In this document: in pieces, positions 4,209 through 30,095 of the stretch
How the letters are laid out: each line of letters starts with the position of its first letter
Position numbering within the stretch: the first letter of the stretch is position 1
Source of the DNA: Ignavibacteriota bacterium
GTDB lineage: Bacteria; Bacteroidota; Ignavibacteria; UBA10030; UBA6906
Direction: 5' to 3'
DNA: 64,000 nucleotides
Assembly (NCBI GenBank): GCA_963748405.1
Contig: CAVVIT010000010.1
Span: forward strand, 819-64,818
Notes under the pieces: generated by a model
The model's database searches: none
Told to the model about the DNA's origin: nothing
What the model saw: only the letters and a program-made list of their open reading frames with translations
Program-made: the position numbers and the translations under genes

Positions 4209-6581
4209 ATGAAAAAAACCCGTTTCGCAATCGCCATAGCGGTCCTACTCCTCGCCGCCTCCGCGGCGCTTTCCCAGGTGTCACCCAAGAACGAGTTCCG
4301 CGGCGTCTGGCTCACGACGGTAGGGGCGACCGACTGGCCGCCAGCGCTGGGCGGTCCCGTCCAGCGGCAGAAGGACTCGCTCGTGGCGATCCTCGACAAA
4401 CTGCGGGGCGCCGGGTTCAACGCGGTGATATTCCAGATCCGCCCCGAATGCGACGCGCTCTACCAGTCCTCGATCGAGCCCTGGTCCTACTGGCTCACCG
4501 GCTCGCAGGGGACTCCTCCGCAGTCGCCGTTCGACCCGCTCCAGTTTGCCATCGACGAAGCCCACAAGCGGGGGATGGAGCTTCACGCGTGGTTCAACCC
4601 GTACAGGGCAGTCAATTCGATCGGGTCGTACCTGATCAGCCCGATGCACGTCTCCGTCCAGCACCCGGGGTGGATACTCACGATCGGGAACCTCAAGATG
4701 CTGGATCCGGGACTGCCTGACGTCCGGGCCTACGTCACGAGCGTCATCCTCGATGTGACCCGCCGGTATGATGTCGACGGGATACATATGGACGATTACT
4801 TCTACGCCGAGGGTATCACGGCCCACCAGGACGATTCTTCGTACGGTCTCAACTGGCGGGGAATCTCCGACAGGGGTGACTGGCGCCGCGACAATGTGAA
4901 CATCCTGCTCCGGGGGATCTACGACAGCATCATGGTCGTGAAGCCGTGGGTCAAGTTCGGGATGAGCCCCGCGGGGATCTGGAGGGACGGCTACCCTCCG
5001 GGAACGTCCGGGAATGACAATTACAGCGTGATCTACGGCGATCCGATGGCCTGGCTCGACGGCCAGTATGTCGATTACCTCGCCCAGCAGCTCTACTGGA
5101 AATTCGGCGGCCCGCAGGACTATGCAAAGCTCGAGCCCTGGTGGTCCGACTCCATCGCCGTGCACGGGCGGCATTCGTATCCCGGGCTCGCCACGTACAG
5201 GATAGGTACGTCGTCGTTCGGCGACGCTTCCCAGATCGCCCAGCAGATACAGTTCTCCCGGGGAGACGCGAACACACAGGGGAACATACAGTTCACGGCG
5301 AACTACATCACGTCGGGAAACACCGGGGGTATCACCGATACGCTCAGGAATGATATCTATCATTACCCGGCGCTTATAACGCCGATGCCCTGGAAGGACA
5401 TGACGGTCCCCTCGATGCCGCGCGGCATCCGCTATGCGCCGCTCGCCGGCGTGGCCCCCGCGGCGATCCAGTGGGACCTCCCGATCGTGTCGCTGAACGG
5501 CGATACGGCGTACCGCTACGTGGTGTACAGATTCGATCACCGGCCCGCCGCCTCGGAGCTTGCCCTCTCGCAGAACATCCTCTCGGTCGAGGGGAGGAGG
5601 TATTTCGTTCCTCCGGCCCCGCCGTCCGGCGGTCCGTGGTACTACGTCGTCACCTCTCTCAGCCGCAATTACGTCGAGAGCGACACGAGCAACATCATCA
5701 TACTCTCCGCGCCTCCGGCTCCGTTCCTTTCGGCTCCTCTCGCCGGTGCGTCCGATGTGCCCGAGAGCCTGAGCGTATCGTGGCATGCTTCGACGCTGGC
5801 CTCCGGTTACCAGTTGCAGGTCGGCACCGACTCGGCGTTCGCCGGCGGATTGATATGGAACGAATCGGCGATCACGGACACGTTCCGGCTTGTGAAGGGA
5901 TTCCAGGGGCAGACCGTCTACTACTGGCGCGTGCGCGCCTCGGGCGGCGGGGGAGTGAGCGCGTGGGCCACCGCGTCGAATTTCAGGACCGGGTTCCCTG
6001 CTTCGCCGGCGCTTTCGTATCCGCCCAACATGCAGGCGGACCTGCCCGTCTTCCTTGCTCTCCGCTGGTCGCCGGCTGCGTCGCTCAAGCCCGTGACCTA
6101 CCGGGTGCAGATCGGCAAAAGCGCAGATCTTGCCTCTCCCGTGATGGACTCGACCGGCGTCGTCGACACGACTCTCGGCGTGACTCCGCTCCAGTATTTC
6201 ACGATCTACTTCTGGCGCGTGAGGGCCGTGAATTCCGTCGGGACCGGCACGTGGTCCCCGGTGTACCGGTTCCGGACCGTACAGGTCTCGGGCGTGGACC
6301 CCGTACCCGACGTTCCCTCGACGTTCGGTCTCGATCAGAACTACCCGAATCCTTTCAATCCCGCGACGATGATCGGCTATCAGGTCCCCGTTGCAGGCAG
6401 GGTGTCGATCATCGTGTATGACGTCCTCGGCCAGGAGGTCTCGCGTCTTGTCGACGGGGTTGAATCTCCCGGAAGGCACGCGGTTCCCTGGAACGGATCG
6501 AACAGGGCGAGCGGCGTGTACATTGTCCGCATGACCGCGGGCTCGTTCGTCGCCACAAAACGCATGCTCCTCATCAAATGA
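4209..6581 (+). CDS. GHL10/DUF187 (YddW/DigH-like) glycoside hydrolase with FN3-like repeats and T9SS CTD
   Basis: EFRGVWLTTV..DWP, LHAWFNPYR and DGIHMDDYFY. Two YYWRVRA/YFWRVRA FN3-like modules. [12 protein letters not shown]. Signal peptide from ATG 4209. Confidence 0.88.
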   Translation: MKKTRFAIAIAVLLLAASAALSQVSPKNEFRGVWLTTVGATDWPPALGGPVQRQKDSLVAILDKLRGAGFNAVIFQIRPECDALYQSSIEPWSYWLTGSQGTPPQSPFDPLQFAIDEAHKRGMELHAWFNPYRAVNSIGSYLISPMHVSVQHPGWILTIGNLKMLDPGLPDVRAYVTSVILDVTRRYDVDGIHMDDYFYAEGITAHQDDSSYGLNWRGISDRGDWRRDNVNILLRGIYDSIMVVKPWVKFGMSPAGIWRDGYPPGTSGNDNYSVIYGDPMAWLDGQYVDYLAQQLYWKFGGPQDYAKLEPWWSDSIAVHGRHSYPGLATYRIGTSSFGDASQIAQQIQFSRGDANTQGNIQFTANYITSGNTGGITDTLRNDIYHYPALITPMPWKDMTVPSMPRGIRYAPLAGVAPAAIQWDLPIVSLNGDTAYRYVVYRFDHRPAASELALSQNILSVEGRRYFVPPAPPSGGPWYYVVTSLSRNYVESDTSNIIILSAPPAPFLSAPLAGASDVPESLSVSWHASTLASGYQLQVGTDSAFAGGLIWNESAITDTFRLVKGFQGQTVYYWRVRASGGGGVSAWATASNFRTGFPASPALSYPPNMQADLPVFLALRWSPAASLKPVTYRVQIGKSADLASPVMDSTGVVDTTLGVTPLQYFTIYFWRVRAVNSVGTGTWSPVYRFRTVQVSGVDPVPDVPSTFGLDQNYPNPFNPATMIGYQVPVAGRVSIIVYDVLGQEVSRLVDGVESPGRHAVPWNGSNRASGVYIVRMTAGSFVATKRMLLIK

Positions 6582-7837
6582 GACTCCTGTCATTGCGAGC
6601 GAAGCGAAGCGCGCTCTTTGCGTCCCGCCGCAGGCGGGGCAATCTGGCAAGATTCTTTCTCACCGCGGCGTGCCTGTCCCTGCTCGCCGGGTGCACCCGA
6701 ACAACGGAACCACCGATGGTGAACGCTCTTCTTGATGAAGCCGGAAAGAAATTGGCCCCCGATCACCGCACGTCGGTGTTTGACGTTCAGGGGACGGTCT
6801 CCGGCAACACGCTCACGCTGACGGGGGATGTGCAGGACTCCGTCATGAAGGATCAGCTCCTCCGGTTCGTCCGGGAAAAAGGGAGCTATACCGTCGTCGA
6901 CAGCATCGCTATTCTTCCCGGCGCATCGGTCGGAGAGAAGACGTTCGGCGTCGTCAACGTGAGCGTTGCCAACCTGCGCACGAAACCCGAGCACCCTGCG
7001 GAGATGGCTTCGCAGGCGATCCTGGGCACCCCGGTGAAGATCCTGAAGAAGAAGGGGGGATGGTACCTTGTCCAGACCCCTGACGAGTACCTGGGATGGA
7101 CCGACGACAGGATCGTCCGCATGACGAAAGAAGCTTACGGTACATGGGCTCAGGCCCCCAAGCTTATCGTAACGGCGGAAGTGACCCGCGTCCGGACGGG
7201 GAAAGACAGGACATCCCAGCCGGTGAGCGACGTGGTGGCTGGATCTCTCCTTGCCCTGAAGGGCTCCTCCGGCGGGTACTACGAAGCCGGGTATCCGGAC
7301 GGCCGTACCGGGTTCATCGCGAAAGACGAAGCGCAGCCGTTCGAAACCTGGCTCGCCGGGGCGCAGGATACGCCCGAGCGGATCGTGGCGACGGCGAAAC
7401 GGTTCTTCGGCGTTCCGTATCTCTGGGGAGGGACATCGGCCAAGGGGATGGACTGTTCCGGATTCACGAAGACGGTCTACTACCTGAACGGCGTCCTCCT
7501 GCCGCGCGACGCCGATCAGCAGGCGGCCGTGGGCGATCCGGTGGATGTTCCCGCGGGGAAGATGGACCTGAAGCCCGGAGACCTGCTCTTCTTCGGATCG
7601 CACGCGACGGCGGAGAAGCCGGAGAGGATTACGCACGTCGCCATTTCTCTCGGCGGGCGCCGCTTCATACACTCGTCCGCCGATGTGCACTACAACAGTC
7701 TCGATCCCGCCGACTCCGATTACAGCGACTTCCGCTCGGCGAGTTTCATCAAAGCGCGCCGGATCATCGGGGCCGGCGAAACCTCCGGCGTCCGCCGGCT
7801 TTCACACATCCCATATTACCGGGGCGATGAACACTGA
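6578..7837 (+). CDS. SH3b + NlpC/P60 (C40) lipoprotein, YkfC/dipeptidyl-peptidase VI-like gamma-D-Glu-diamino acid endopeptidase
   Basis: Lipobox LLAG-C. VSVANLR..P...EMASQAILG (SH3b). PYLWGGTS.KGMDCSGF, LPRDADQQ, THVAI and FIHS. ATGA overlap with the upstream stop. Confidence 0.9.
   Translation: MRLLSLRAKRSALFASRRRRGNLARFFLTAACLSLLAGCTRTTEPPMVNALLDEAGKKLAPDHRTSVFDVQGTVSGNTLTLTGDVQDSVMKDQLLRFVREKGSYTVVDSIAILPGASVGEKTFGVVNVSVANLRTKPEHPAEMASQAILGTPVKILKKKGGWYLVQTPDEYLGWTDDRIVRMTKEAYGTWAQAPKLIVTAEVTRVRTGKDRTSQPVSDVVAGSLLALKGSSGGYYEAGYPDGRTGFIAKDEAQPFETWLAGAQDTPERIVATAKRFFGVPYLWGGTSAKGMDCSGFTKTVYYLNGVLLPRDADQQAAVGDPVDVPAGKMDLKPGDLLFFGSHATAEKPERITHVAISLGGRRFIHSSADVHYNSLDPADSDYSDFRSASFIKARRIIGAGETSGVRRLSHIPYYRGDEH
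6588..6645 (+). repeat. TGTC-tagged palindromic (REP/RPE-like) repeat, copy 1, inside a coding sequence
   Basis: TGTCATTGCGAGCGAAGCGAAGCGCGCTCTTTGCGTCCCGCCGCAGGCGGGGCAATCT. Its 3' half is near-identical to 47047-47088 and its 5' half is identical to 57008-57030. Confidence 0.85.
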
Positions 7838-8966
7838 CAGACGGACATTCCTCAAACGTTCGGCCCTCGCGGGGGCTTCACTCGCGATTGGCCGCGGCAG
7901 CCTCCTGTCATTCGGCAGACCGGAGGGCACGACACACACATCGGGAAATCCCATGAAAATCAGATTCTATCCCTACACGCTTGAGCTGAAACACGTGTTC
8001 ACCGTCGCCACGTTCTCGCGGAGCACGACTCCCGTCATGATGGTCGAGCTGGAACAGGACGGGATCACCGGGTACGGCGAGGCCTCGATGCCGCCCTACC
8101 TCGGCGAGAGCCACGCGACGGCGACGGCGTTCCTCTCGAACGTGGACATGTCCAGGTACCCCGACCCCTTCCGCATGGAGGACATCCTCCGGGACATCGA
8201 CGCGATCGCCCCGGGGAACATGGCGGCGAAAGCCGCGGTCGATATCGCGCTCCACGACTGGGTCGGGAAGAAAATGGGGTACCCCTGGTACAAGATCTGG
8301 GGGCTCGACCCGTCGAAGGCTCCCGTGACCACGTTCACGATCGGCATCGACAAGCCGGACGTGGTGAGACAGAAAGTCAAGGAAGCGGAAATCTACAAGG
8401 TCCTCAAGGTCAAGATGGGGCTTGCCAACGACAAGGAGATGATCGAGACCATCCGCGAGGTCACCGACAAGCCGATCCGCGTGGACGTGAACCAGGGGTG
8501 GAAGGACCGCGAAGCGGCCCTGAAGATGATCGAGTGGCTCGCGACGAAAGGGGTGGAGTTCGTGGAGCAGCCCATGCCGAAAGAGCAGGTGGACGATATC
8601 GCGTGGCTTCGCTCAAAGAGCCCCCTTCCCCTCATCGGGGACGAAAGCGTCGTCCGGATGTCGGACATTAAGAAGGCCATCGGCGTCTTTGACGGGATCA
8701 ACATCAAGCTGATGAAATCCACCGGGATGCACGAAGCGTACAAGATGATCGCGACCGCCCGGGCGCTCGGCATGAAGGTCATGATCGGGTGCATGACGGA
8801 GACGTCCTGCGCCATCTCGGCCGCCGCCCAGCTTTCCCCCCTGGCGGACTATGCGGATCTCGACGGCGCCCTCCTGATAAGCAACGACCTGTTCAGGGGC
8901 GCCACGATCGTGGACGGCAAAGTGACGCTGACCGACGGCCCCGGCATCGGCGTCACCAAGATATAA
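7827..8966 (+). CDS. L-Ala-D/L-Glu dipeptide epimerase (enolase superfamily) with Tat signal peptide
   Basis: MNTDRRTFLK twin-arginine motif. LKVK, DVNQGW, EQP, GDES, INIKLMK and the DLDG epimerase motif. Adjacent to the YkfC-like peptidase, as in ykfB-ykfC. Confidence 0.92.
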   Translation: MNTDRRTFLKRSALAGASLAIGRGSLLSFGRPEGTTHTSGNPMKIRFYPYTLELKHVFTVATFSRSTTPVMMVELEQDGITGYGEASMPPYLGESHATATAFLSNVDMSRYPDPFRMEDILRDIDAIAPGNMAAKAAVDIALHDWVGKKMGYPWYKIWGLDPSKAPVTTFTIGIDKPDVVRQKVKEAEIYKVLKVKMGLANDKEMIETIREVTDKPIRVDVNQGWKDREAALKMIEWLATKGVEFVEQPMPKEQVDDIAWLRSKSPLPLIGDESVVRMSDIKKAIGVFDGINIKLMKSTGMHEAYKMIATARALGMKVMIGCMTETSCAISAAAQLSPLADYADLDGALLISNDLFRGATIVDGKVTLTDGPGIGVTKI

Positions 8967-9016
8967 CGTCATTGTGCGCTTTTTTGCATGGCGCCGCAGG
9001 CGCCACGAAGCAAGCT
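8967..9016 (+). repeat. CGTC-tagged palindromic repeat, copy 2 (degenerate)
   Basis: CGTCATTG...TGGCGCC-GCA-GGCGCCA-CGAAGCAAGCT, starting immediately after stop 8966. Confidence 0.7.
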
Positions 9017-9048
9017 AAGCCCCTATTCACACTGAAAACCATGACCCC

Positions 9049-10197
9049 ATGACCACACCCGATTCCTCATCCCGCCTCGGCTCACTCGACGCCTTTCGCG
9101 GCGCGACGATCGCCGGCATGATACTCGTCAACAACCCCGGTTCCTGGAACGCCATCTACCCGCAGCTCGAGCACGCGCGGTGGAACGGGTGGACGTTCAC
9201 CGACTGGATATTTCCGTTCTTTCTCTGGATCGTCGGCGTCGCCATGACGCTCTCCTTCCAGAAGAGGAAGGACCGGGGGGAGGACAGCGGCAAGCTCCTC
9301 CTCCACGTCCTCCGCAGGGCCGTGATCATATTCGCGCTGGGGATGTTCCTGAACGGTTTTCCGTTCGGCCTGATCGTCGGGAATTTCTCTCTTGCGACAA
9401 TGCGCATCCCCGGCGTCCTTCAGAGGATTGCCGTCTGCTATCTCATCGCGAGCACGATATTCCTGTATACCGGTATCCGGGCCCAGATCTGGTGGGTGGT
9501 GGGGCTTCTCGCCTCCTACTGGGCCGCCATGATGCTGATCCCCGTCCCGGGATTTGGCGCGGGCGTGCTGGAGCCGACCGGGTGTCTCCCGTGGTACGTC
9601 GATTCTCACCTCCTCGCCGGCCACACCTGGAGCGGCGCACCTGCCCCGGGGTTTGATCCGGAGGGAATCCTGAGCACCATTCCGGCGATCGCGACGACGC
9701 TTCTCGGCATACTCGCTGGCCACTGGCTCCGCACGGGCTATTCCCGGGAAGAGAAGACCGCGTGGATGTTCGTCGTCGGCAACGTCTTCCTCCTTGCAGG
9801 CGCGATCATGGACATCTGGTTTCCGATCAACAAGAACCTCTGGTCCAGCTCGTACGTGGTGTTTATGGCCGGCTGGGCGCTCGTCTGCTTCTCGATGTTC
9901 TACTGGCTGATGGACGTGAAGGGCCACACGAAATGGGCCCGCCCGTTCGTCATCTACGGGATGAACGCGATTGCGGTGTTCGTCCTTTCGGGGATCGTCG
10001 GGCGGCTCCTGACGCTCATTAAATTCACGGGCGCCGACGGCAACCCGGTGACGCTCAAAGGCGTCATCTACAACAATCTGTTCGTCCCCTTCTTCAGCCC
10101 GGTGAACGCGTCGACGCTGTTCGCGATCGCGTTCATCCTGGTGATGTACCTGGTCGTCTGGGCGATGTGGAAGAGAAAGTGGTTCATCAAAGTGTGA
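9049..10197 (+). CDS. HGSNAT/NagX-like (DUF5009/DUF1624) multi-pass membrane N-acetyltransferase
   Basis: RLGSLDAFRG, MILVNNPG, LEHARWNG.TFTD.IFPFFL, GVLQRIA, DPEGILS and PINKNLWSSS. Many hydrophobic helices. Confidence 0.88.
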   Translation: MTTPDSSSRLGSLDAFRGATIAGMILVNNPGSWNAIYPQLEHARWNGWTFTDWIFPFFLWIVGVAMTLSFQKRKDRGEDSGKLLLHVLRRAVIIFALGMFLNGFPFGLIVGNFSLATMRIPGVLQRIAVCYLIASTIFLYTGIRAQIWWVVGLLASYWAAMMLIPVPGFGAGVLEPTGCLPWYVDSHLLAGHTWSGAPAPGFDPEGILSTIPAIATTLLGILAGHWLRTGYSREEKTAWMFVVGNVFLLAGAIMDIWFPINKNLWSSSYVVFMAGWALVCFSMFYWLMDVKGHTKWARPFVIYGMNAIAVFVLSGIVGRLLTLIKFTGADGNPVTLKGVIYNNLFVPFFSPVNASTLFAIAFILVMYLVVWAMWKRKWFIKV

Positions 10198-10215
10198 ACG
10201 ACCGGAGAAATCCCG

Positions 10216-11970
10216 ATGACAATGTCGATTAACCGCTGCGGGCGCGTTGCGGCCGGCACACGGACGCTTGCGCTCATGTGTGTCCTGGCGCTCGCGGGAA
10301 CATTCCCCGCCCGTGCTGATGTCATGGCCGAGCTGCGCGCGCTCAACGCGCGGTTCGGCGGGCACCTGGGACTGATGGCGAAGAACCTGTCCACGGGGGA
10401 AACGATTGCGTACAACGCTGCGGACCGCTTTCCCACCGCGAGCACGATCAAGCTCCCGGTGATGACGGCGTATTTCGACATGGTGAGGAAGAAGGAGATC
10501 GATCCCGCGATGCGGATCACGCTCCGCGCGGAGGACAAGAAGCCCGGGTCGGGCGTTCTGCAGTTCCTGGACGACGGTGCGGTCATCACGCTCCGGGACG
10601 CCGTGACGCTCATGATCACCATGAGCGACAACACCGGCACGAATCTCGTCCTTGACCGCCTCGCCCCGACGCACCAGGCTCGGCTCGCGAAGGTCAACGA
10701 CTTCATCGCCTCGCAGGGACTGAAGAACACACGCATACTCAACCGCCTGTTCACGCTCGAGACGAAACAGGAGACCCCGGAGGCGATGCGCTTCGGGATC
10801 GGTGTGGCGACCCCGGAAGACATGGCCCTCCTGATGGAGAAGCTGTACGACGGGTCCCTGTGCGATTCCGCGTCCTGTGCGTCGATGATAGGGATCCTGG
10901 AGAACCAGTTCTACTCCGACATGGTCCCGCGCCTCCTCCCGCAGGGGGAGTGCAGGACGTTTGCGGTTGCCCACAAGACCGGGAGCATCACCGAAACCAA
11001 AGCCGACGTCGCCCTTGTTCTTACTGACAGGGTGAAGTTCGCCATCGCGGTGTATGTCGACAAGTCGCCCGACCACCAGGACGACAACGCGGATGCCGCG
11101 ACGCTGCTCGGCGCCTATGCCGCCCGGGCGGTCTGGAACCAGTTCACGGGGATGACGGGATACGACAGGGGAACGGTCAACACCTCCGATGTCGATTGGA
11201 CGACGTTCAAGGGGGGAAAGTGGGGGATTTACCGCTCCGCAGCCGCCCCGTTCCCGCATCCCGCGCGCATGGAGGGATATAAGGGAAGCGACGGGACGGT
11301 GTACCCGTATTTCCCGAATTACGCCGACAGCAGCATCGTCGTCTTCGTCCCTGAGGGGTTCCACGAGACCGACGGCGGCGCGAACGTGATCGTGCATTTT
11401 CACGGCCACATGAACGACGACGTGGACGTCCTGGAGCAGTATGGCCTCCCCCAGTCGATGATCGCGCAGAAGACGAACGCGCTCCTGGTGATCCCCCAGG
11501 GGCCGTACAGGGCAAGGGACTCGTTCGGGGGCAAGATGGAGGACGAGGGGGGGTTCCGCAGGCTGGTGGAAGACGTGATGGCGACGATGAAGAAAGAGAA
11601 GGTCGTGACCTCCACGGACGTCGCACGCGTGATCGTCACCGCCCACAGCGGCGGCTACCGTCCTGCCGGGTTCGTGCTGGACCGGGGAGGGATGTCGGAC
11701 CTGATCACGCACGTGTTCCTCTTCGACGCTCTGTACGGACAGCACGAGTATTTCCGCGACTGGCTTCTGAAGGGGAAAGGGATCATCAGGGCCGCCTACA
11801 CGGACCATCTTGCGAAGGAACACGCCGATGTCGCGGCAAGCGTCGCCGCGGCGGGCTCGCGCTGGTCGATGACCCCCGCGGGGGTCGAGCACGATAGGGT
11901 GCCGAATGTCTTTTTTGCCCGGTGGCTCTCGGAGCTTCCGGCAGTATGGAAAATCACAACGAAGGAGTGA
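10216..11970 (+). CDS. Secreted class A beta-lactamase-fold serine hydrolase (PBP-like) fused to a C-terminal alpha/beta hydrolase
   Basis: SxxK (STIK), SDN and KTG in the N-terminal half. VHFHGH, AHSGG nucleophile elbow, LFDALYG and a late His in the C-terminal half. Confidence 0.8.
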   Translation: MTMSINRCGRVAAGTRTLALMCVLALAGTFPARADVMAELRALNARFGGHLGLMAKNLSTGETIAYNAADRFPTASTIKLPVMTAYFDMVRKKEIDPAMRITLRAEDKKPGSGVLQFLDDGAVITLRDAVTLMITMSDNTGTNLVLDRLAPTHQARLAKVNDFIASQGLKNTRILNRLFTLETKQETPEAMRFGIGVATPEDMALLMEKLYDGSLCDSASCASMIGILENQFYSDMVPRLLPQGECRTFAVAHKTGSITETKADVALVLTDRVKFAIAVYVDKSPDHQDDNADAATLLGAYAARAVWNQFTGMTGYDRGTVNTSDVDWTTFKGGKWGIYRSAAAPFPHPARMEGYKGSDGTVYPYFPNYADSSIVVFVPEGFHETDGGANVIVHFHGHMNDDVDVLEQYGLPQSMIAQKTNALLVIPQGPYRARDSFGGKMEDEGGFRRLVEDVMATMKKEKVVTSTDVARVIVTAHSGGYRPAGFVLDRGGMSDLITHVFLFDALYGQHEYFRDWLLKGKGIIRAAYTDHLAKEHADVAASVAAAGSRWSMTPAGVEHDRVPNVFFARWLSELPAVWKITTKE

Positions 11971-11983
11971 CACGACAGACTCT

Positions 11984-14344: not shown

Positions 14345-14350
14345 ACCGTC

Positions 14351-14395: not shown

Positions 14396-14416
14396 GTTTT
14401 TTCCAGGAGAGTAGGT

Positions 14417-17865: not shown

Positions 17866-17870
17866 TCGCA

Positions 17871-18809: not shown

Positions 18810-18812
18810 CGG

Positions 18813-21749: not shown

Positions 21750-21750
21750 C

Positions 21751-23100
21751 GTGAAATCTGAACCTGCCATAAGCGTGGGGATACTCACGGCCCCGGCCGT
21801 TGAGTTCGAGGGGGAGTTCGACGCTCCCGGCGCGCAGGGGGGACTCCACGGCCCTGCACGCGCTTCCGTCTCGGGCGGATCCGTGCTGATCGAGTGCGGC
21901 CCCCGGCGGGATGTGCTTGCTTCCGGAGTCCTCCTCACCCCCACCGGCGCTTCAGGGCGCTCGTTCGTCATCCGCGGGGTGACGATAGGGATCAAGTTCC
22001 ACTGGGAGCGGAAAGAGGACCAGCGGTTTACGGGAGCACTCCGGCTTGTGGTGAAAGGGGGGGATGTCGTCGCCGTCAATGTCGTCGCGGTCGAGGACTA
22101 CCTGGCGAGCGTCATCTCGTCGGAGATGAGCGCGGGAAGTTCGCTGAACCTTCTGAAGGCTCACGCGATCACCTCCCGGAGCTGGCTCCTGGCGCAGCTC
22201 GAGCGCTCCGGCGAGCTGAAAGAATGGGTGAAAAAATACAGGTCCACGCTGCGCGAGCCCGGGAAACTCGTCAGGTGGTACGACAGGGAGGAACACGCGC
22301 TCTTCGACGTCTGTGCGGACGACCACTGCCAGAGGTATCAGGGGATCACCAAGTCGACGACTCCCTCGGTCAGCGATGCCGTCGATCAGACCCGGGGACA
22401 GGTGGTGATGCACGATGGCAGGATCTGCGACGCCAGGTTTTCGAAATCCTGCGGGGGGATCACCGAGCCGTTTTCAAAAGTCTGGCAGCCGGTGGATGTT
22501 CCGTACCTGGTGAACGTCGCGGACATTCCTCCTTCCGACCGGCTCCCGGGATATTTGCCCGGGGCCGATGTCAGCAGGGAGGAACACGCGGACAGGTGGA
22601 TCAGGAGCTCGCCTCCGGCGTTCTGTAACACGACCGATGCGCGCATACTCTCGCAGGTCCTCCTCAAATACGACCAGGAGACGACCGATTTCTACCGGTG
22701 GACGGTCGAATACACGCAGGAGTACGTCTCGGCTCTCATAGGGGAGAAAAGCGGCGTCGATTTCGGCGCGATACTCGATATCGCGCCGGTCGAGCGCGGG
22801 CCCTCCGGCCGGCTGACGCTCCTGCGGATCGTCGGTGAGAAGACGACGTTAACCATCGGGAAAGAGCTCGAGATCCGGCGGACGCTTTCACCGTCCCATC
22901 TGTACAGTTCGGCGTTTGTCGTGGAAAAGCACGATGTTGTCGGGCTCATCCCAGGGAAATTTGTGCTCAAAGGGGCCGGCTGGGGTCACGGTGTCGGACT
23001 CTGCCAGATCGGCGCGGCGGTGATGGGTGACCTCGGGTACGCCCCGGAGGCGATACTCGCTCACTACTTCCCCGGCACCTCGGTCACAAAGCTGTACTAG
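21751..23100 (+). CDS. SpoIID/LytB-family lytic transglycosylase, no evident signal peptide
   Basis: VEDYLASVISSEM (catalytic Glu), LKAHAITSRS, DVCADDHCQRYQG, KSCGG and GWGHGVGLCQIGA. Confidence 0.9.
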   Translation: MKSEPAISVGILTAPAVEFEGEFDAPGAQGGLHGPARASVSGGSVLIECGPRRDVLASGVLLTPTGASGRSFVIRGVTIGIKFHWERKEDQRFTGALRLVVKGGDVVAVNVVAVEDYLASVISSEMSAGSSLNLLKAHAITSRSWLLAQLERSGELKEWVKKYRSTLREPGKLVRWYDREEHALFDVCADDHCQRYQGITKSTTPSVSDAVDQTRGQVVMHDGRICDARFSKSCGGITEPFSKVWQPVDVPYLVNVADIPPSDRLPGYLPGADVSREEHADRWIRSSPPAFCNTTDARILSQVLLKYDQETTDFYRWTVEYTQEYVSALIGEKSGVDFGAILDIAPVERGPSGRLTLLRIVGEKTTLTIGKELEIRRTLSPSHLYSSAFVVEKHDVVGLIPGKFVLKGAGWGHGVGLCQIGAAVMGDLGYAPEAILAHYFPGTSVTKLY

Positions 23101-23104
23101 TCCG

Positions 23105-23132
23105 GTCATTGCGATTTTTCAGAAGTCCATTC
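23105..23132 (+). repeat. Possible decayed copy of the TGTC/CGTC repeat
   Basis: GTCATTGCGA...GAAG, 4 nt after stop 23100. The internal hairpin is absent. Confidence 0.35.
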
Positions 23133-23160
23133 TCCACAGATCAGAGGTAGCATACATCGT

Positions 23161-24954
23161 ATGAATAACATTCGTGTCAGCACCCACGTTGCGCCGATCC
23201 TCCTGGCGCTCGTCCTTTCTCTGGTAGTGACTTCCTCCGCCGTTTCCCAGCCGGCCCCGGCCGCGCGCCCCAATTTCGTCCGGCTCGTCGTTCCCGAGGC
23301 CGACACGGTCCAGGCCTCTTCGCTCACGTACCGGCTTTCGGCGGGGACGCTCCCCGGGAACAAACTCACGATCAACGGAACTCCGCTGAAGGTGTACCCT
23401 TCGGGAGCGACCGCAGGGCTCCTGATGCTGAACGTCGGCGAGAATCGCTTCACGCTGACCGCGACGACCCCCAGGGGGGACTCCGTGTCGAAGTCGTTCC
23501 TCGTCGTGCGGGAGAAGCCGGCGGAAACGACGCCTGATTCCTCTCTGGCCATCGATACGACCATGAGCGAGCCGTCGGAAGACCTCTGGCTGAACGAAGA
23601 TGACCGGCTCGAAGTGCAGTTCAAAGGGACCCCGGGACGCATCCCGTCGAATGACCTGGGCATCCCGATGACGGAAGTGAAGCCCGCCTACGCGCACGGC
23701 CTCGGAGGGATCTACCGCGGCGTCTACACGGTGCGCGACGACGACACCCTCTCGGCACACCCGGTCAGGTTCCGGCTGCAGGACTCCACGGGGGCATACG
23801 TGGAGTGCACCTCGAAGGGAGCCGTCACGATGCGGCCCGGGGACTTCCCGTACATCGGCATCACGAAGGGTGAGCGTCCGGCCCTTGCGTACGGGCTGGG
23901 CGATGACCGGCTCGGAGGAGCCAAAATGTCGTTCATCAACTCCGGGATCCGCCTCGCCATTACGGGGAAGCACGGCAGCATGTACCGGGTCGGTCTGGCT
24001 CCGGGGCACGAAGCCTGGATCGCCGCCGCAAACGTCGATCTCATCCCCAGGGGGGCGCGCCTTCCCTCCGCGCTGACGGAAAACTGGAACGTGTATGGCG
24101 ACGAGAAGTTCGACTATGTGAGCGTGGGGATCCCCCTGCGGCTTCCGTATTCTTCGACGACCGAATCCGATCCGTCGCGCATCAATGTCGACGTCTACGG
24201 TGCGACGTCCAACACGAACTGGATCATACAGCAGCTCACGACCCGCGAGATCAAGAACGTGTACTACACCGAGCCCTCCGCGGGCGTCTTCCGGATCACG
24301 ATCGAGCTGAAGCACAAACAGATCTGGGGCTACGAAATCGCCTATAACCCGGCCGGGCTCGTCATCAAAGTCCGCCGCCAGCCGGAGAAGCTCAAGATCA
24401 AGGCGCTCACGTTCGCCCTCGACGCGGGTCACGGGGGGGAAAACCTGGGTGCGCTCGGCTCCACCGGCGCCCTCGAGAAGGAGATCAACCTCGCGGTGGT
24501 GAAGGACCTGAAGGCGATACTCGAGGACAGGGGCGCCAGGGTCATCCTGACCAGGGACAGCGACGCCGACGTCACGATGGCCGACCGGGTCAGGAAGGTG
24601 GTGACCTCGAGTGCCGACATTCTGATCAGCGTGCACTCCAATTCCATCGGGCTGACAACAAACCCGGAATTGACCCGGGGGACCGCGACGTTCTACAAGC
24701 ACATCTGCTATCGTCCGCTCGCGCTGGCGATCGTCAGGCAGATGCTCAAAACGGGACTTCCCCTGTTCGGAAACGTGGGGAGCTTCAACTTCTCCCTGAA
24801 CGCCCCGACGGAGCTTCCCAACGTTCTTGTCGAGATGGCGTTCGTTTCGAACCCCTCCGACGAAATGAACCTGATCGACCCGGAGTTCCGTCACACAATC
24901 GCCGAACACATCGTCGACGGCGTTGACGATTTCCTCGATGCGTGCGATGAGTAA
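23161..24954 (+). CDS. Periplasmic N-acetylmuramoyl-L-alanine amidase (C-terminal Amidase_3)
   Basis: Signal peptide. ALDAGHGG, EKEINL, LTRD, ISVHSNS and VLVEMAFVSN. No CTD. Confidence 0.9.
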   Translation: MNNIRVSTHVAPILLALVLSLVVTSSAVSQPAPAARPNFVRLVVPEADTVQASSLTYRLSAGTLPGNKLTINGTPLKVYPSGATAGLLMLNVGENRFTLTATTPRGDSVSKSFLVVREKPAETTPDSSLAIDTTMSEPSEDLWLNEDDRLEVQFKGTPGRIPSNDLGIPMTEVKPAYAHGLGGIYRGVYTVRDDDTLSAHPVRFRLQDSTGAYVECTSKGAVTMRPGDFPYIGITKGERPALAYGLGDDRLGGAKMSFINSGIRLAITGKHGSMYRVGLAPGHEAWIAAANVDLIPRGARLPSALTENWNVYGDEKFDYVSVGIPLRLPYSSTTESDPSRINVDVYGATSNTNWIIQQLTTREIKNVYYTEPSAGVFRITIELKHKQIWGYEIAYNPAGLVIKVRRQPEKLKIKALTFALDAGHGGENLGALGSTGALEKEINLAVVKDLKAILEDRGARVILTRDSDADVTMADRVRKVVTSSADILISVHSNSIGLTTNPELTRGTATFYKHICYRPLALAIVRQMLKTGLPLFGNVGSFNFSLNAPTELPNVLVEMAFVSNPSDEMNLIDPEFRHTIAEHIVDGVDDFLDACDE

Positions 24955-25540
24955 AGTTCCGCCTCCGGGCGTCCGCGCGTCGATCCGGCCCTGGACGATC
25001 GGAGATCTCCCCGACGTCCGCCGCATCGGGTGGGAGACGTGGAAAGCGACGTACGGCAGGTTCATCCCCGAGGAGGACCTGCGGGCGTATCACGACGAGC
25101 ATTATTCGGCCGGGGCGCTCGAGCGCAACTTCCGGAGGCCCTCCACCCGCGGGTATGTGGCGCTCCTTGACGGAAAGACGGTCGGCTATATGATCATGTC
25201 GTTCGACCGGGAGTCGGGGCGATGCCACGTGGCGTCAATCTACGTGCTCCCGGGCAGCCAGGGACACGGCCTCGGATCGATGCTCATGAGGGAGGCGTTC
25301 AGCGCGGCCCGCCAGTCGGAGTACGACCGCGTCTGGCTCGGCGTCATGTCCGAAAACGCACCGACGCTCGCCTGGTATAAAGCTCTCGGTTTCGCATTTG
25401 TCGAAGAGGCCCCCTTTACGATGGGAAACACCACCGTCAATCACCTGATCGGATACAGGCTGCTCGTTCCGCCGGTTCCGCCGCCTGGTCCTCCACCTGC
25501 TCCCGCTGACGGAAAGAGACCGGCGCATGAATCGACCTGA
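24947..25540 (+). CDS. GNAT family N-acetyltransferase
   Basis: ETWKATY, IYVLPGSQGHGLGSML (acetyl-CoA motif) and N...LAWYKALGF. Confidence 0.85.
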   Translation: MSKVPPPGVRASIRPWTIGDLPDVRRIGWETWKATYGRFIPEEDLRAYHDEHYSAGALERNFRRPSTRGYVALLDGKTVGYMIMSFDRESGRCHVASIYVLPGSQGHGLGSMLMREAFSAARQSEYDRVWLGVMSENAPTLAWYKALGFAFVEEAPFTMGNTTVNHLIGYRLLVPPVPPPGPPPAPADGKRPAHEST

Positions 25541-26804
25541 ACGGCGCAATCCCTGGGTCTGGATTCCCTCCCTCTACTTTGCCGAAGGGCTGCCGTACGT
25601 TGTCGCCCTGAACGTTTCGGTGATCATGTACAAGCGGATGGGCATATCGAACACGGATATCGCCCTCTACACGAGCCTGCTCTACCTTCCGTGGGTGATC
25701 AAGCCGCTCTGGGGACCGGTCGTGGACCTTGTCCGCACGAAGCGGCTCTGGATCGTCACGCTTCAGCTCATCCTGGGCATCGCGCTCGCCGCGGTCGCGC
25801 TCACGATCCCCGTGCCGGGGTTCTTCCGCGCCACGCTCGTCCTGTTCTGGCTCATGGCGTTTGCCTCCGCCACGCACGACATCGCGGCGGACGGCTTCTA
25901 CATGCTCGGGCTGAAGGAGCACGAGCAGGCGGCGTTCGTGGGGGTGAGGTCGACGTTCTACAGGATCGCGATGGTCACCGGGCAGGGGGCTCTCGTGTTC
26001 TTTGCGGGGACGGTCGAGACGCGCTCCGGGGGGAATACGGCGCTGGCCTGGTCGATGACCTTCGGCATACTCGCCGCAATGTTCATCGCCTTCTTTCTCT
26101 ATCACCGGTTCATGCTTCCGTACCCCGCCGCCGACGTCCAGGTGCGGGGCGGCGGAGGGACACCCCCGCTGGCGGATTTCTTCAAGGTCTTCCGGGCGTT
26201 CTTTACCAAACCCGGGATACTTTCGATCCTGGCATTCCTTCTCCTCTACAGGTTCGCCGAATCGCAGCTCATCAAGCTCGTCTCCCCGTTCCTTCTCGAC
26301 CCCCGGACGAAGGGAGGGCTGGGGCTCACCACGAGCGAGGTGGGGATCGTCTACGGGACGGTCGGGATCGCCGCGCTGACGGCCGGCGGGCTCGTCGGGG
26401 GGTTCGTCATTCCGCGCAGGGGACTGAAGTTCTGGCTCTGGCCGATGGTCATCGTGATGCATCTGCCGGACCTGATGTTCGTCTATCTCTCGCAGGCGCA
26501 GCCGGGGAGTTTTCTGCTCATCAACGTGGCCGTGGCCTTCGAGCAGTTCGGGTACGGTTTCGGCTTTACCGCGTACATGCTCTACATGATCATGGTCTCC
26601 GAGGGGGAGCACAAGACCGCGCATTACGCCATCTGCACGGGGATCATGGCTCTCGGGATGATGGTCCCCGGGATGTTCAGCGGCGCCCTCCAGGAATGGC
26701 TCGGTTATCCGAATTTTTACCTCTGGGTGATGCTCTCCACGATCCCCGGATTCGTCGTCACAGCGCTCATCACCATCGATAAAGACTTCGGCAAGAAAAC
26801 CTGA
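25527..26804 (+). CDS. ampG: AmpG-family muropeptide MFS permease
   Basis: [37 protein letters not shown] and LLLYRFAES. About 12 transmembrane segments. Confidence 0.8.
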
Positions 26805-26814
26805 GGGAATCCTG

Positions 26815-28308
26815 ATGAAACGTTCTTCGAAGAACCCCGCTGCAGGGGAGAAACCTCTCTTTACCGCGTTCGTTCCCTACGGCGGAAACGAGGCGACGGA
26901 ATACACGGTCGCACAGCTTGTCGGATCGCCCATCGTGGGAAAAGTCTACGTTCTCACGCCGGGGGACGCTCCTGTCCCGTTCAGGGGGGCCGTGCCTCTC
27001 CGCGTCAATGCGCTGAAATCCGCCTCGACGATGAAGAAGATTGCGGCGAAGACCGCGACTCCCTGCGCGCTGCTCATTCTGCACGACGTCGCGCTCCAGT
27101 TCGGGCAGTTCGCCCTGGAGCGGATGGCCTCGGTCGCGGACTCGACGGGGGAGGGGATGGTCTACAGCGATTTCATCGAAGTGAAGGGTCCCTCGCCGGC
27201 TCCCCATCCCCTGATCGACTACCAGGAAGGGAGCGTGCGCGACGATTTTGACTTCGGCTCCGTCGTCGTCCTGGAGGCGTCCGCGCTGAAAGCGGCGGCC
27301 AGGGAGATCGGCAGCTCGCGGCACGCGGGCTTTTATGCGCTCCGGCTGGCCATCGCCAGGAAGAAGGGAGTGTTCAGGATCGCCGAGACGCTCTACACGA
27401 AAACCGAGCTCGACACGCGGAAGGAAGGGGCGAAGCTCTTCGATTACGTCGATCCGAAGAACCGCGTCGTGCAAGTCGAAATGGAGAAAGCCGTCACGCA
27501 GCACCTGAAGAAGGCCGGTGCCTGGCTGAAGCCCGTCAGGGAAACGGTCGACCTGGACGAGGGAAAGTTTGCCGTCACCGCGTCGATCATCATCCCCGTG
27601 CGCAACCGGGCGAATACGATCGGCGATGCCGTGGCTTCGGCGCTGCACCAGCAGGCGTCGTTCGCGTTCAACGTGATCGTCGTGGACAACCACTCGACCG
27701 ACGGAACCTCCGAGATTCTCAAGACATTCGCCGCGCGGGACCGGAGGCTCGTCCACCTCGTCCCGTCGCGGACGGACCTCGGGATCGGCGGGTGCTGGAA
27801 CGAGGCCGTGCATCATCCCGCCTGCGGCCGGTTCGCCGCCCAGCTCGACAGCGACGACCTGTACGCCGACGAATCGACGCTCAACAAGATCGTGGACCGT
27901 TTCCGGAAGGACAGGTGCGCGATGGTCGTCGGCACGTACCGGATGACCGATTTCAAGCTCCAGGAGATCCCGCCGGGTGTGATCGATCACAGGGAATGGA
28001 CGCCGGACAACGGCCCCAATAACGCGCTCCGGGTCAACGGGTTCGGCGCCCCCCGGGCGTTCTTCACGCCGGTTCTCCGGCGGGTGAACATTCCGAACGT
28101 CAGCTACGGCGAGGACTACGCGGTGGGGCTGGCGGTGTCGCGCCGGTACCGCATCGGCCGGATCTACGAGCCGATTTATCTCTGCCGCCGGTGGGAAGGA
28201 AACTCCGACGCGGACCCCGGGATCGCGAAAATGAACCTGAACAACTGGTACAAGGACAAAGTCCGGACGATCGAGATCCGGGCGCGTCGGCTCAGGCGTC
28301 CGCTCTGA
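26815..28308 (+). CDS. Glycosyltransferase family 2 with an extra N-terminal GT-A-like domain
   Basis: [28 protein letters not shown] (DxD) and YGEDY. The N-terminal part contains MVYSDF and DFDFGS. Confidence 0.88.
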
Positions 28309-28334
28309 TCACCACAAACCGTTCATCGCGAACC

Positions 28335-29357
28335 ATGGAACCCTCGATCCAGCGCGTGCTGATCTCGGACCGCGAGCTTGACCTCCGCGGCGGAAGCGAC
28401 CTTGCTTCGCGTGCGCACTTTCTCCTGCGGCAGCAGAAGGAGACGTGGCCCCTCCTCCGTGCCGGCTACGAGGGGCTCTCGGGCGTCCGGACCCGCACGA
28501 TCGACCTCGATGACGGCTTCGGCGTCCGTCTCCAGTGGAACCCCGCCCGGATCGTCTCCTCCTCGGCAAACGTCGACCCGGAGGCGATACGCCGCCGGAA
28601 ATGCTTCCTCTGCCCCGACAATCTCCCCCCCGAACAGCGGGGAATCCTCTTCGGGGGAAGCTACCTGGTTCTCTGCAACCCGTTCCCGATATTCCAGGAG
28701 CATTTCACGATCCCGCACACCTCCCACACCCCCCAGCGGATCGGCACCTCGATCGGGACGATGCTCGACCTGGCGCAGGCGATGCACAAACGGTATACCC
28801 TCATCTACAACGGTCCCCGGAGCGGCGCCTCGGCGCCGGACCATCTGCATTTTCAGGCGGGGGAGAAGGGGTTCCTTCCCCTCGAGGCGGACATCGACCG
28901 TCTCATCGGGGAGGGGGAGATTCTCGTCGACGAGAAGATGCTCCACGCCGTTGCGGTGGATGCCCAGCTCCGGCGGTACATCGCCCTGAGGTCCCACGAC
29001 AGGGAGTCGCTCATCGTCGCGTTCCGGGCCGTGGAATCGTCGTTTGCCGGAGCCGCGGAAGCCGTCGAGGAGCCGATGATGAACGTCCTGGCGTGGTTTG
29101 ATCAGGGGGCGTGGACTGTCCTGGCCTTCCCCCGTGCGAAGCACAGGCCCTCGATGTATTTCGCCCAGGGGGAGGCGAAGATCCTGATAAGTCCCGCCGC
29201 GGTCGACTGCGGCGGAGTGCTCATCACGCCGCTGGAGAAGGATTTCCAGTGCCTTACCGCGGATCACATCAGGGAGATGTTCGATGAGATTTTTCTCCCT
29301 CCCCCGGCGTTCAAGGAGGTCCGGGCGCGTCTCGCCGGGAATCTCACGCCGCGCTGA
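28335..29357 (+). CDS. DUF4922 HIT-fold protein (Ap4A phosphorylase / GDP-hexose phosphorylase-like)
   Basis: QWNPARIVSS, CFLC, LCNPFPIF..HFTI, YNGP..GASAPDHLHFQ (HxHxQ) and FPRAKHRP. Confidence 0.82.
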   Translation: MEPSIQRVLISDRELDLRGGSDLASRAHFLLRQQKETWPLLRAGYEGLSGVRTRTIDLDDGFGVRLQWNPARIVSSSANVDPEAIRRRKCFLCPDNLPPEQRGILFGGSYLVLCNPFPIFQEHFTIPHTSHTPQRIGTSIGTMLDLAQAMHKRYTLIYNGPRSGASAPDHLHFQAGEKGFLPLEADIDRLIGEGEILVDEKMLHAVAVDAQLRRYIALRSHDRESLIVAFRAVESSFAGAAEAVEEPMMNVLAWFDQGAWTVLAFPRAKHRPSMYFAQGEAKILISPAAVDCGGVLITPLEKDFQCLTADHIREMFDEIFLPPPAFKEVRARLAGNLTPR

Positions 29358-29402
29358 GAAGCGGCCCGACAGGCCGGTCATCAATCATCCCTCGGGTATC
29401 CC

Positions 29403-30095
29403 ATGAAGAAGATCGGACTTGTGGGCGGCATCGGCCCCGAATCGACGCTCGATTACTACAGGAACATCACCGGCGCATTCCGGGATTCGTACGAAACGAC
29501 CGGGTTCCCCGAGATCGTCATCGAGAGCATCGACCTGAAGAATTTCAACGCCCTCGTCGAAGCGGGGAAGTGGGAGTCCGTGATCCAGCTCGTGTCGTTC
29601 AAGTGCGGGCTGCTCAGGCGGTGCGGAGCTGAAATCGGCGCGATGGCCTCCAATACCCCCCACGCCGTCTTTGACGCGATACAGGCGAAGACCGACCTCC
29701 CCCTCATCAGCATCGTGGCGGTCACGGTCGACTATGCCCGGACGCTCAACGTCCGGTCGCTCTGCCTCCTGGGCACGAAGTTCACGATGACGTCCGATTA
29801 CTATCAGGACGAATTCGACAAGTACAATATCCGGCTCACCACCCCTGAGCCGGAGGAGATCGACCGCATCCAGCACATACTCTTCAAAGAAGTCGAGCTC
29901 GGCGTCATCAGGGAAAAGTCGCGCGCCGAGCTTGTCGCGATCATCAACAGGATCAGGAAAACGGCGGGGGTCGAAGGGGTGATACTCGGGTGCACCGAGC
30001 TTCCGCTTATCCTCTCGCAGAAGGACCTGGCGCTCCACTGCATCAATCCGTCCCGGATTCACGTCGACGCGCTTGTGAAGGAGAGCATCTCGTGA
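29403..30095 (+). CDS. Aspartate/glutamate racemase family protein (RacX/YgeA-like)
   Basis: IGLVGGIGPESTLDYY, ASNTPH, LLGTKFTM and ILGCTELP. Confidence 0.9.
   Translation: MKKIGLVGGIGPESTLDYYRNITGAFRDSYETTGFPEIVIESIDLKNFNALVEAGKWESVIQLVSFKCGLLRRCGAEIGAMASNTPHAVFDAIQAKTDLPLISIVAVTVDYARTLNVRSLCLLGTKFTMTSDYYQDEFDKYNIRLTTPEPEEIDRIQHILFKEVELGVIREKSRAELVAIINRIRKTAGVEGVILGCTELPLILSQKDLALHCINPSRIHVDALVKESIS

Follow-up and report, generated by a model that had tools for sequence, protein, structure and literature searches.

Does the 17-gene cluster at positions 4209-30095 of the DNA analyzed here, a 64,000-nucleotide stretch of an Ignavibacteriota genome (that whole stretch is referred to below as the window), serve to consume the cell walls of other bacteria, or to maintain and recycle the cell's own? 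A sequence-only reading had interpreted the cluster as a dedicated pathway for scavenging foreign peptidoglycan. The follow-up reported here suggests that it is probably a system for the acquisition and catabolism of peptidoglycan that draws mainly on exogenous substrate and recycles the cell's own wall as a secondary function. Its chief interest lies in a pair of predicted secreted enzymes (g1 and g8) and in an uncharacterised trio of signal-less proteins (g11, g15 and g16). The window lies on contig C10 of a 4.9-Mb genome that is 99.2% complete.

Gene content and conservation of the cluster

All 17 open reading frames (ORFs) of the cluster (g1 to g17, Table 1) lie on the plus strand of the window, as given by its ORF listing. 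Families were assigned by Pfam and NCBIfam profile searches, solved structures were compared through matches in the Protein Data Bank (PDB), and gene starts were re-set by inspecting N-terminal sequences. The sequence-only reading had described 17 genes of one orientation spaced by no more than 82 bp, which the ORF coordinates bear out, and each of the murein-related families that it named was recovered by the Pfam, NCBIfam or PDB comparisons. Five members had been absent from it: g4 (NagX/MurT-like), g7 (PD40), g13 (GNAT), g15 (GT2) and g16 (DUF4922). Since the functions are coherent and the gene order is conserved across genera, the grouping is beyond chance.

A synteny check had been proposed together with the sequence-only reading, and it found the genes not to be scattered in relatives. 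Synteny was scored around the g6 homologue in eight relatives. All 17 genes were present in unchanged order in a genome of the same genus (G006) and 16 in G004; in other genera the counts were 15 (G024), 14 (G023) and 14 (G011), so that at least 14 of the 17 genes are kept in five of the eight relatives. The g9-g10 pair is shifted to the cluster end in G023 and G024, and no match to it was seen within the range read for G011; the SpoIID gene is missing from the G023 and G024 clusters, and the AmpG gene is inverted in some relatives. A seven-gene core (g3, g4, g6, g11, g14, g15 and g16) was found in G017, and only g6 in G015 and G028, the locus of the latter being interrupted by a contig end. 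Three partial loci (L001, L108 and L110) agree with the synteny of the cluster. A gene for the exo-N-acetylmuramidase NamZ lies within the cluster in G023, G024 and G017. Taken together, these results indicate that the cluster is a conserved unit of the lineage.

Presence counts were taken over 41 genomes, 24 of them from the same family and eight from the same genus. The body of g8 was found in 19 of the 41 (14/24 in the family, 8/8 in the genus), g15 in 22 (18/24 in the family) and g6 in 25. This patchy occurrence within the family fits an accessory trait.

A predicted secreted enzyme pair

As the sequence-only reading had noted, two enzymes of the cluster carry sorting domains of the type IX secretion system (T9SS). 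Both g1 and g8 combine a Sec signal peptide with a type-A sorting domain above the NCBIfam cut-off (TIGR04183, 35.8 bits for g1 and 33.5 for g8, cut-off 23), the sequence features by which T9SS cargo is recognised. With the Pfam sorting-domain profile g8 scored 27.6 and g1 25.5, the latter just below the cut-off of 27. The sorting domains of both are retained in their orthologues. The genome encodes SprA (SprA_N, 188.5 bits in a 2407-aa frame) and well over 100 matches to the C-terminal sorting domain (CTD), and a gene for a PorV/PorP-like protein lies in the window at 223-1275. Cargo with a type-A CTD is delivered past the outer membrane, to a place where none of the cell's own wall is found.

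The N-terminus of g1 reads MKKTRFAIAIAVLLLAASAALSQ, and its catalytic domain matched GHL10 with 215.9 bits, a profile that also matches the Escherichia coli control genome. In g8 the DPGHGG motif is present. On these family matches, g8 is predicted to be an extracellular MurNAc-L-Ala amidase (MurNAc, N-acetylmuramic acid) and g1 an extracellular cleaver of denuded glycan. According to a study of E. coli DigH (PMC12288456), that septal enzyme acts specifically on denuded glycan, with an amidase acting first and glycan cleavage following. In G035, a genome from the same taxonomic order but a different family, orthologues of the two enzymes adjoin, g8 first and then g1 (G035:C56:11-4698).

Proposed pathway and its enzymes

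The pathway proposed here was assembled from family membership and targeting signals. Outside the cell, the T9SS-exported amidase g8 would strip stem peptides from insoluble murein, and the T9SS-exported GHL10 enzyme g1 would then cut the bared glycan. In the periplasm, the amidase g12 and the lipoprotein g10 would trim the fragments at their ends, with NamZ assisting, to mono- and disaccharides, and the peptides would be dismantled by g5, which resembles a penicillin-binding protein (PBP), the YkfC-type g2 and the epimerase g3, exported by twin-arginine translocation (TAT). At the inner membrane, AmpG (g14) would import disaccharides of N-acetylglucosamine (GlcNAc) and MurNAc, GlcNAc-(anh)MurNAc, and the NagX/MurT-like g4 would import MurNAc or re-acetylate de-N-acetylated sugars. 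In the cytoplasm, the kinase g9, an unlinked MurQ and the deacetylase/deaminase-like g6 would lead the sugars to fructose-6-P, the racemase g17 would handle D-amino acids, and the trio g11, g15 and g16 would process the imported disaccharide. The target would mainly be the wall material of other cells, and the cell's own shed wall would be taken up as well.

Among the enzymes of the envelope, g2 had as its best PDB match a Bacteroides dipeptidyl peptidase VI (DPP VI)/YkfC-type structure (3npf, 280 bits; 3pvq gave 268 bits). The product of g3 starts with MNTDRRTFLK, matched the TAT-signal model TIGR01409 with 21.4 bits (cut-off 16.7) and contains MR_MLE_C and MR_MLE_N; it stayed below the equivalog cut-offs of the AEE models (149.6 against 343 and 135 against 500) and of DgcA (209.9 against 400), and its epimerase function is supported by context, since it is paired with the YkfC-type gene g2. 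The protein g5 matched Beta-lactamase2 with 193.8 bits and NF033103 with 113 (cut-off 200), and its top PDB matches were 4ewf followed by the PBP-A Tll2115. ExxxN provides the omega-loop general base of class A beta-lactamases. Despite the SxxK, SDN and KTG motifs of g5 (STIK76, SDN137 and KTG254), ExxxN occurs nowhere in the protein, and a class A beta-lactamase was rejected on this ground; g5 resembles a DD-peptidase more than a genuine beta-lactamase. Lipoprotein g10 has the lipobox FFSSC, the NagZ motif KHFPGHG and an SVTK motif. A characterised N-acetylglucosaminidase of Rhodothermus marinus, RmNag3, is described with a signal peptide and this same architecture (PMC6987092). For g12 the scores were 120.1 bits for Amidase_3 and 20.9 for AMIN, the latter barely above the cut-off of 20.5. 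A third Amidase_3 gene of the genome is located outside the cluster.

Inspection of N-termini showed seven proteins to be signal-less (g6, g9, g11, g13, g15, g16 and g17). The carrier g14 is 52-92% identical to the AmpG proteins of the relatives' clusters. The membrane protein g4 is 35% identical to a Proteiniphilum protein encoded between NamZ and MurQ, and NagX proteins are described as distantly related to TfMurT (PMC9007349); by family, g4 may import MurNAc or may act as a trans-membrane N-acetyltransferase. The deaminase part of g6 is indicated by PRK02122 (193.9 bits) and by PDB matches to NagB, and its deacetylase-like part by a weak PIG-L match (E=0.026) and an HHDD motif; its Atlas neighbours combine Glucosamine_iso and PIG-L. 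A deacetylase role fits, because no NagA above cut-off was found elsewhere in the genome. The best PDB match of g9 was the MurNAc/GlcNAc kinase 8zo3 (113.7 bits). Catabolism of D-glutamate in the style of DgcN/DgcA, by g13 and g3, was considered and set aside: g3 carries a TAT signal, a GNAT requires cytoplasmic acetyl-CoA, and DgcN is not known to be a GNAT.

The signal-less trio

The sequence-only reading had counted the SpoIID protein g11 among the glycan cleavers, a role that is doubtful at least in the periplasm. The protein matched TIGR02669 with 159.7 bits (cut-off 83.3), and its SEM and GHGVG motifs align with those of SpoIID 4rwr, the Glu of SEM being what we take to be the catalytic residue of the family. 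Neither g11 nor any of the 38 homologues with a readable start (39 homologues lie beside g15 in total) has a signal peptide or a hydrophobic N-terminus; the highest 12-residue Kyte-Doolittle mean among these N-termini was 1.6. Because the signal peptide is missing, g11 is probably not a periplasmic glycan cleaver.

In g15 the sequence DSDD of the second GT-A domain is invariant in an alignment of homologues from which L176, which contained a stop codon, was omitted. Its predicted structure had a pLDDT (predicted local distance difference test) of 79.7, with the chondroitin polymerase K4CP as best fold match. The single-copy g16 has the HxHxQ motif of GalT-branch HIT enzymes, as HLHFQ, and a weak PDB match to Ap4A phosphorylase; domains of this type are reported in GDP-L-galactose and GDP-D-glucose phosphorylases. 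Full-length homologues of g15, 52-77% identical, were found in Ignavibacteria, Bacteroidales, Marinilabiliales, Balneolales, Verrucomicrobiota and Planctomycetota. Among the best 80 g15-homologue loci, the neighbours were DUF4922 in 52, a SpoIID-like gene in 39, AmpG in 38, MurQ in 29, NamZ in 26, a NagX-like gene in 21, and SusC and SusD in seven each, a Proteiniphilum locus described below (L177) being included in the counts.

One speculative possibility for the chemistry of the trio, by analogy, is a nucleotide-dependent, ATP-saving and phosphorolysis-like split of the disaccharide. Such a route would mirror the GH94 chitobiose phosphorylase that lies beside an AmpG-like carrier in the chitin locus of the same genome. 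The combined claim, of a SusC/D-free murein utilisation operon in which a T9SS amidase is followed by a denuded-glycan hydrolase and in which g11, g15 and g16 form an undescribed route for AmpG-imported GlcNAc-MurNAc, is a tentative one and rather unlikely to hold in all its parts.

Related systems

The closest known counterpart is found in Tannerella forsythia, whose operon Tanf_08345-08385 is listed as xanthan-lyase-like, gtf, gtf, lytB, ampG, ybbC/namZ1, murT, murK and murQ (PMC5388701). It is described as one transcript under the control of GppX; both GlcNAc-MurNAc and GlcNAc-anhMurNAc enter through its AmpG, and the cells grow on intact foreign peptidoglycan (PMC5388701, PMC7670621). The function of its two gtf genes is still given as unknown in bioRxiv 10.1101/2021.12.02.470905. 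Both systems place AmpG beside SpoIID/LytB-family and glycosyltransferase genes, and both have a NagX/MurT-family protein and a kinase of the MurNAc type. The equivalence was drawn from family names and the order of genes, by way of a Proteiniphilum locus laid out in the same manner. In contrast to the T. forsythia operon, NamZ (C10:77041 and C4:198056) and MurQ (C2:238065) are unlinked here, and g9 is nearer to the 8zo3-type kinase, no T. forsythia MurK structure having been matched. The cluster adds two T9SS hydrolases, the NagZ-AmiE-like fusion, the PBP-like peptidase, the pair of YkfC and epimerase, the NagB/PIG-L-like protein, a GNAT and a racemase. An auxotrophy for MurNAc like that of T. 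forsythia was ruled out, as MurA is present (538.7 bits).

The Proteiniphilum locus just mentioned (Proteiniphilum sp. X52, L177, 1-20572) contains SusC, SusD, DUF4623, GHL10, a 1022-aa Golvesin_C protein, GT2, SpoIID-like, AmpG, NamZ, NagX-like, an ORF without a Pfam family, and MurQ. Its GHL10, DUF4623 and SusD proteins have lipoprotein signals followed by acidic residues (C-K-D-D at the Cys of GHL10), which we take to be the Bacteroidota surface-export signal. By its gene content, L177 is a candidate peptidoglycan PUL (polysaccharide utilization locus) of Bacteroidales. It shares with the Ignavibacterial system GHL10, predicted at the cell surface in L177, as well as GT2, SpoIID-like, AmpG, NamZ, NagX-like and MurQ; it differs in having SusC/D and lipoprotein export in place of T9SS sorting domains, and no amidase, YkfC, epimerase or NagZ-fusion gene was found within the 21 kb read.

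The peptide genes of Bacillus subtilis are ykfABCD, and a YkfC-type endopeptidase paired with an L-Ala-D/L-Glu epimerase is common to that species and the cluster. So is extracytoplasmic breakdown by an exo-glucosaminidase and a beta-lactamase-fold amidase, the muropeptide rescue of B. subtilis being described as secreted NagZ and AmiE with NamZ/YbbC and MurQ (comparison drawn from PMC6987092). Unlike in B. subtilis, NagZ and the AmiE-like domain are fused here in one lipoprotein, the carriers are of the major facilitator superfamily (MFS) type and not of the phosphotransferase system, the epimerase is TAT-exported, and the setting is a diderm one with T9SS export. With E. coli recycling (AmpG, NagZ, AmpD, LdcA, AnmK, Mpl) and septal DigH, the cluster has in common an AmpG-family permease and a GHL10/DigH-family enzyme, whereas its NagZ is exported, as the lipoprotein signal of g10 indicates, and its DigH relative is predicted beyond the outer membrane. 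No match to AnmK or Amidase_2/AmpD, and none above cut-off to Mpl or NagA, was found in the 99.2%-complete genome. Judged by these predicted enzymes, the cluster differs from the E. coli-type re-use pathway.

The core of AmpG, SpoIID-like, GT2, DUF4922 and NagX-like genes recurs widely in Bacteroidota, and the cluster is related to, but larger than, a scavenging module already described. To the sequence-only reading, the consolidated form was one without a known description; this has to be narrowed, as the core belongs to the widespread Tannerella-type module, but it stands for the T9SS-based form. Neither a T9SS-based peptidoglycan cluster nor the SusC/D form was found described in the open-access literature, subscription journals not being covered, and for Ignavibacteria and peptidoglycan degradation that literature gave generic mentions only. 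As predicted from its signals and families, the Ignavibacterial form is one with two T9SS-exported enzymes instead of SusC/D, plus a periplasmic peptide-processing set.

Foreign wall or own wall

Five lines of evidence favor a foreign substrate. The enzymes g1 and g8 carry signals that send them past the outer membrane. Systems homologous to the cluster are either SusC/D loci or the scavenging operon of Tannerella. The genome has a third Amidase_3 gene that is not part of the cluster. The cluster is distributed patchily in the family. Finally, the genome, which is that of a polymer degrader, also has a chitin locus parallel to the cluster. This locus (L188, G000:C5:662000-681999) encodes a GH18, a CTD protein, a TonB-dependent receptor, two ROK proteins, an AmpG-like MFS carrier 49% identical to g14, a further GH18, a GH94 phosphorylase and an HGSNAT-like protein, and is a sister design to the peptidoglycan cluster.

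Several observations weigh against this interpretation. No outer-membrane importer (TonB-dependent receptor, SusC/D) is present in the cluster or in those of its sister versions that were examined; the profiles TonB_dep_Rec, Plug and SusD found nothing in the 17 genes, in the window flanks or among the genes that the G023, G024 and G017 clusters have in addition. Many NCBIfam matches fall under their equivalog cut-offs, and gene spacing is the only basis on which the 17 genes may be regarded as one operon. In G015, g6 and g15 lie on separate contigs, and 79 of 80 loci with g10 homologues of other lineages hold three or fewer of the 17 cluster genes. The missing signal peptide of g11 conflicts with the textbook periplasmic role of its family. 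The g15-g16 pair also stands alone in non-wall contexts in Planctomycetota, Verrucomicrobiota and an Ignavibacteriae metagenome-assembled genome (L113, L111 and L121), as two-gene units of 56-61% identity with no wall-related neighbours and no functional clue, and its tie to peptidoglycan is therefore an association in Bacteroidota only. Finally, the AMIN domain of g12 resembles that of septal amidases, and the sole other AmpG-like gene of the genome sits in the chitin locus.

The last two points also speak for a purely self-maintaining cluster, devoted to remodelling and recycling of the cell's own wall, in which the exported enzymes would act in cell separation or in clean-up of own fragments. 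SpoIID-type enzymes work on the own wall in Bacillus. So does DigH in E. coli (PMC12288456). On the other hand, T9SS cargo placed beyond the outer membrane meets no own wall, an Amidase_3 gene remains available outside the cluster, many members of the family gave no match to the cluster, the peptide re-use enzymes Mpl (above cut-off) and AmpD as well as AnmK were not found in the genome, and homologous loci carry SusC/D. We consider pure self-maintenance unlikely. The claim that the cluster goes beyond self-recycling is partly supported, by the T9SS signals and the homologous SusC/D loci, but not as a pathway apart: holding the genome's only AmpG outside the chitin locus, the cluster is inseparable from self-recycling, which its AmpG probably also serves.

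An additional scenario, which overlaps the foreign-wall interpretation rather than opposing it, is that g8 and g1 are first of all weapons, T9SS-delivered bacteriolytic enzymes that kill neighbours, with the uptake genes harvesting the spoils. Consistent with it are the binding-type domains (Big_5, fn3 and Ig) of the two predicted secreted hydrolases, another conserved T9SS cargo next door (u3, Table 1) and the adjoining orthologues in G035. However, as long as a diderm cell is intact, its wall would be out of reach for an amidase and a denuded-glycan hydrolase, the Pfam and NCBIfam scans of the cluster showed no evident immunity gene, and trimming, import and catabolism account for 15 of the 17 genes; killing as the primary function is distinctly unlikely. 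That the substrate is another GlcNAc polymer (chitin, chitosan or a glycosaminoglycan-like exopolymer) and the wall-related names a family-level coincidence is highly improbable. In its favor, NagX-family genes are described as common in chitin operons (PMC9007349), RmNag3 was assayed on chito-oligosaccharides (PMC6987092) and little work exists on members of GHL10. Against it stand the three amidase-type domains of the cluster, its YkfC-type endopeptidase, dipeptide epimerase, SpoIID protein and MurK-like kinase, the NamZ genes of sister clusters, and the chitin locus that the genome has apart from the cluster, with GH18, GH94 and a TonB-dependent receptor.

With the acquisition of mainly foreign peptidoglycan as the preferred interpretation, the earlier description of the cluster as PUL-like stands in one respect: surface and periplasmic glycan-degrading enzymes are co-localised with inner-membrane importers (g1, g8, g10, g12, g14 and g4). 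It does not extend to SusC/D or a TonB-dependent receptor, which the cluster lacks.

Boundaries and neighbourhood

The coordinates of the cluster and of its bounding features are listed in Table 1.

Table 1. The 17 cluster genes and adjacent features, in window coordinates.
Feature	Position	Strand	Description
u3	2625-4091	+	488-aa T9SS cargo, NHL/propeller-like; Por_Secre_tail 42.5 bits; ends at terminator
Intrinsic terminator	4122-4159	+	16-pair stem (9 G-C pairs) and T-run; closes upstream unit
TACATTTG box	4177-4184	+	Possible Bacteroidota-type -7 promoter element, 25 nt 5' of g1 start
g1	4209-6581	+	Signal peptide, GHL10 (DigH/YddW family) glycosidase, Ig, fn3, T9SS CTD
g2	6578-7837	+	Lipoprotein, SH3 domains and NlpC/P60; YkfC/DPP VI-type gamma-D-Glu-diamino acid endopeptidase
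g3	7827-8966	+	TAT-signal MR/MLE enzyme, dipeptide-epimerase group (L-Ala-D/L-Glu epimerase-like)
g4	9049-10197	+	Polytopic NagX/TfMurT-family membrane protein; NF046061 196 bits (cut-off 480)
g5	10216-11970	+	Exported class-A-like penicillin-binding-type peptidase, 300-aa C-terminal extension
g6	11906-14344	+	Cytoplasmic, 812 aa; NagB-like deaminase part and divergent PIG-L-like deacetylase part
g7	14417-15334	+	Exported PD40 (TolB-like) beta-propeller; PD40 59.7 bits, signal peptide
g8	15331-17865	+	Signal peptide, Amidase_3, CarboxypepD_reg, two Big_5, T9SS CTD
g9	17871-18809	+	Cytoplasmic BadF-type sugar kinase, MurK/NagK-like; BcrAD_BadFG 136.9 bits
g10	18813-21749	+	Lipoprotein; GH3 NagZ-type N-acetylglucosaminidase fused to serine beta-lactamase/PBP4B-like (AmiE-like) domain
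g11	21751-23100	+	SpoIID/LytB-family protein without signal peptide
g12	23161-24954	+	Exported Amidase_3, N-terminal region including AMIN domain; signal peptide
g13	24923-25540	+	Cytoplasmic GNAT acetyltransferase; Acetyltransf_1 73.3 bits
g14	25527-26804	+	Polytopic AmpG-family MFS permease; TIGR00901 173.5 bits, below cut-off 350
g15	26815-28308	+	Cytoplasmic, two tandem GT-A domains, the second GT2; Glycos_transf_2 80 bits
g16	28335-29357	+	DUF4922, GalT-branch HIT-type nucleotidyl-transferase or NDP-sugar phosphorylase-like; DUF4922 187.6 bits
g17	29403-30095	+	Cytoplasmic Asp/Glu-type amino-acid racemase; TIGR00035 158.3 bits (cut-off 93.1)
MFS_3 transporter gene	30121-31383	-	Convergent; MFS_3 191.9 bits; bounds cluster, not a member

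The widest intergenic gaps are those between g3 and g4 (82 nt), g6 and g7 (72 nt), g11 and g12 (60 nt) and g16 and g17 (45 nt); overlapping neighbours include g1/g2, g2/g3, g7/g8 and g13/g14. The G+C content is even across the region, at about 62%. The long ORF containing g1 opens at 4161, and the g1 start was set at 4209. Both boundaries given in the sequence-only reading, a strong terminator upstream and a convergent gene downstream, were found again. The terminator hairpin is retained with compensatory changes in G006, G024 and G011; no homologue of the MFS_3 gene was seen beside the relatives' clusters. The TACATTTG box is read as a candidate promoter element from the consensus TAnnTTTG, which we take to be that of the Bacteroidota-type -7 element, and G006 and G004 also carry a CAGTACATT-like stretch. 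A sigma-70 promoter scan gave matches no more frequent than in shuffled sequence, and no Rfam family, riboswitches included, reached its gathering score anywhere in the 64-kb window.

The gene u3 lies directly 5' of g1 in G006, G004, G024 and G011. It has no catalytic Pfam domain, and its Atlas neighbours are CTD proteins, part of them with NHL repeats. It is a syntenic neighbour of the cluster whose membership is unproven, and may be an 18th functional partner, for example a binding or lytic protein. Just 5' of u3, a gene for a PorV/PorP-SprF-like outer-membrane protein is followed by one for a TIG-domain protein (223-2546, plus strand); PorP-like genes often accompany specific T9SS cargo. 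Elsewhere in the window, two adjoining proteins of the arylsulfotransferase (ASST) family, both ending in the T9SS cargo class by their sorting domains, are encoded at 58346-63348 (plus strand), a 908-aa protein with only a weak match to a GH67 N-terminal domain at 35485-38211 (plus strand), and a class-A PBP with transglycosylase and transpeptidase domains at 47147-49480 (plus strand). The window also holds a resistance-nodulation-division (RND) pump (43965-47009), a hybrid histidine kinase (51663-54359, minus strand) and a methyl-accepting chemotaxis protein (MCP) chemoreceptor (54761-56494).

Significance

In soils and sediments, peptidoglycan makes up a large reserve of organic carbon and nitrogen, and few dedicated uptake systems are known beyond those of Tannerella and Bacillus. 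The Ignavibacterial form is linked to a Bacteroidales form with SusC/D, for which no description was found in the open-access literature. The chemistry of the g11, g15 and g16 trio, if solved, would fill a gap in the use of imported wall disaccharides, including that by the Tannerella operon. For free-living bacteria that possess a T9SS, the cluster offers a compact and testable wall-harvesting gene set, with a predicted order of action for its two secreted enzymes, g8 and then g1.

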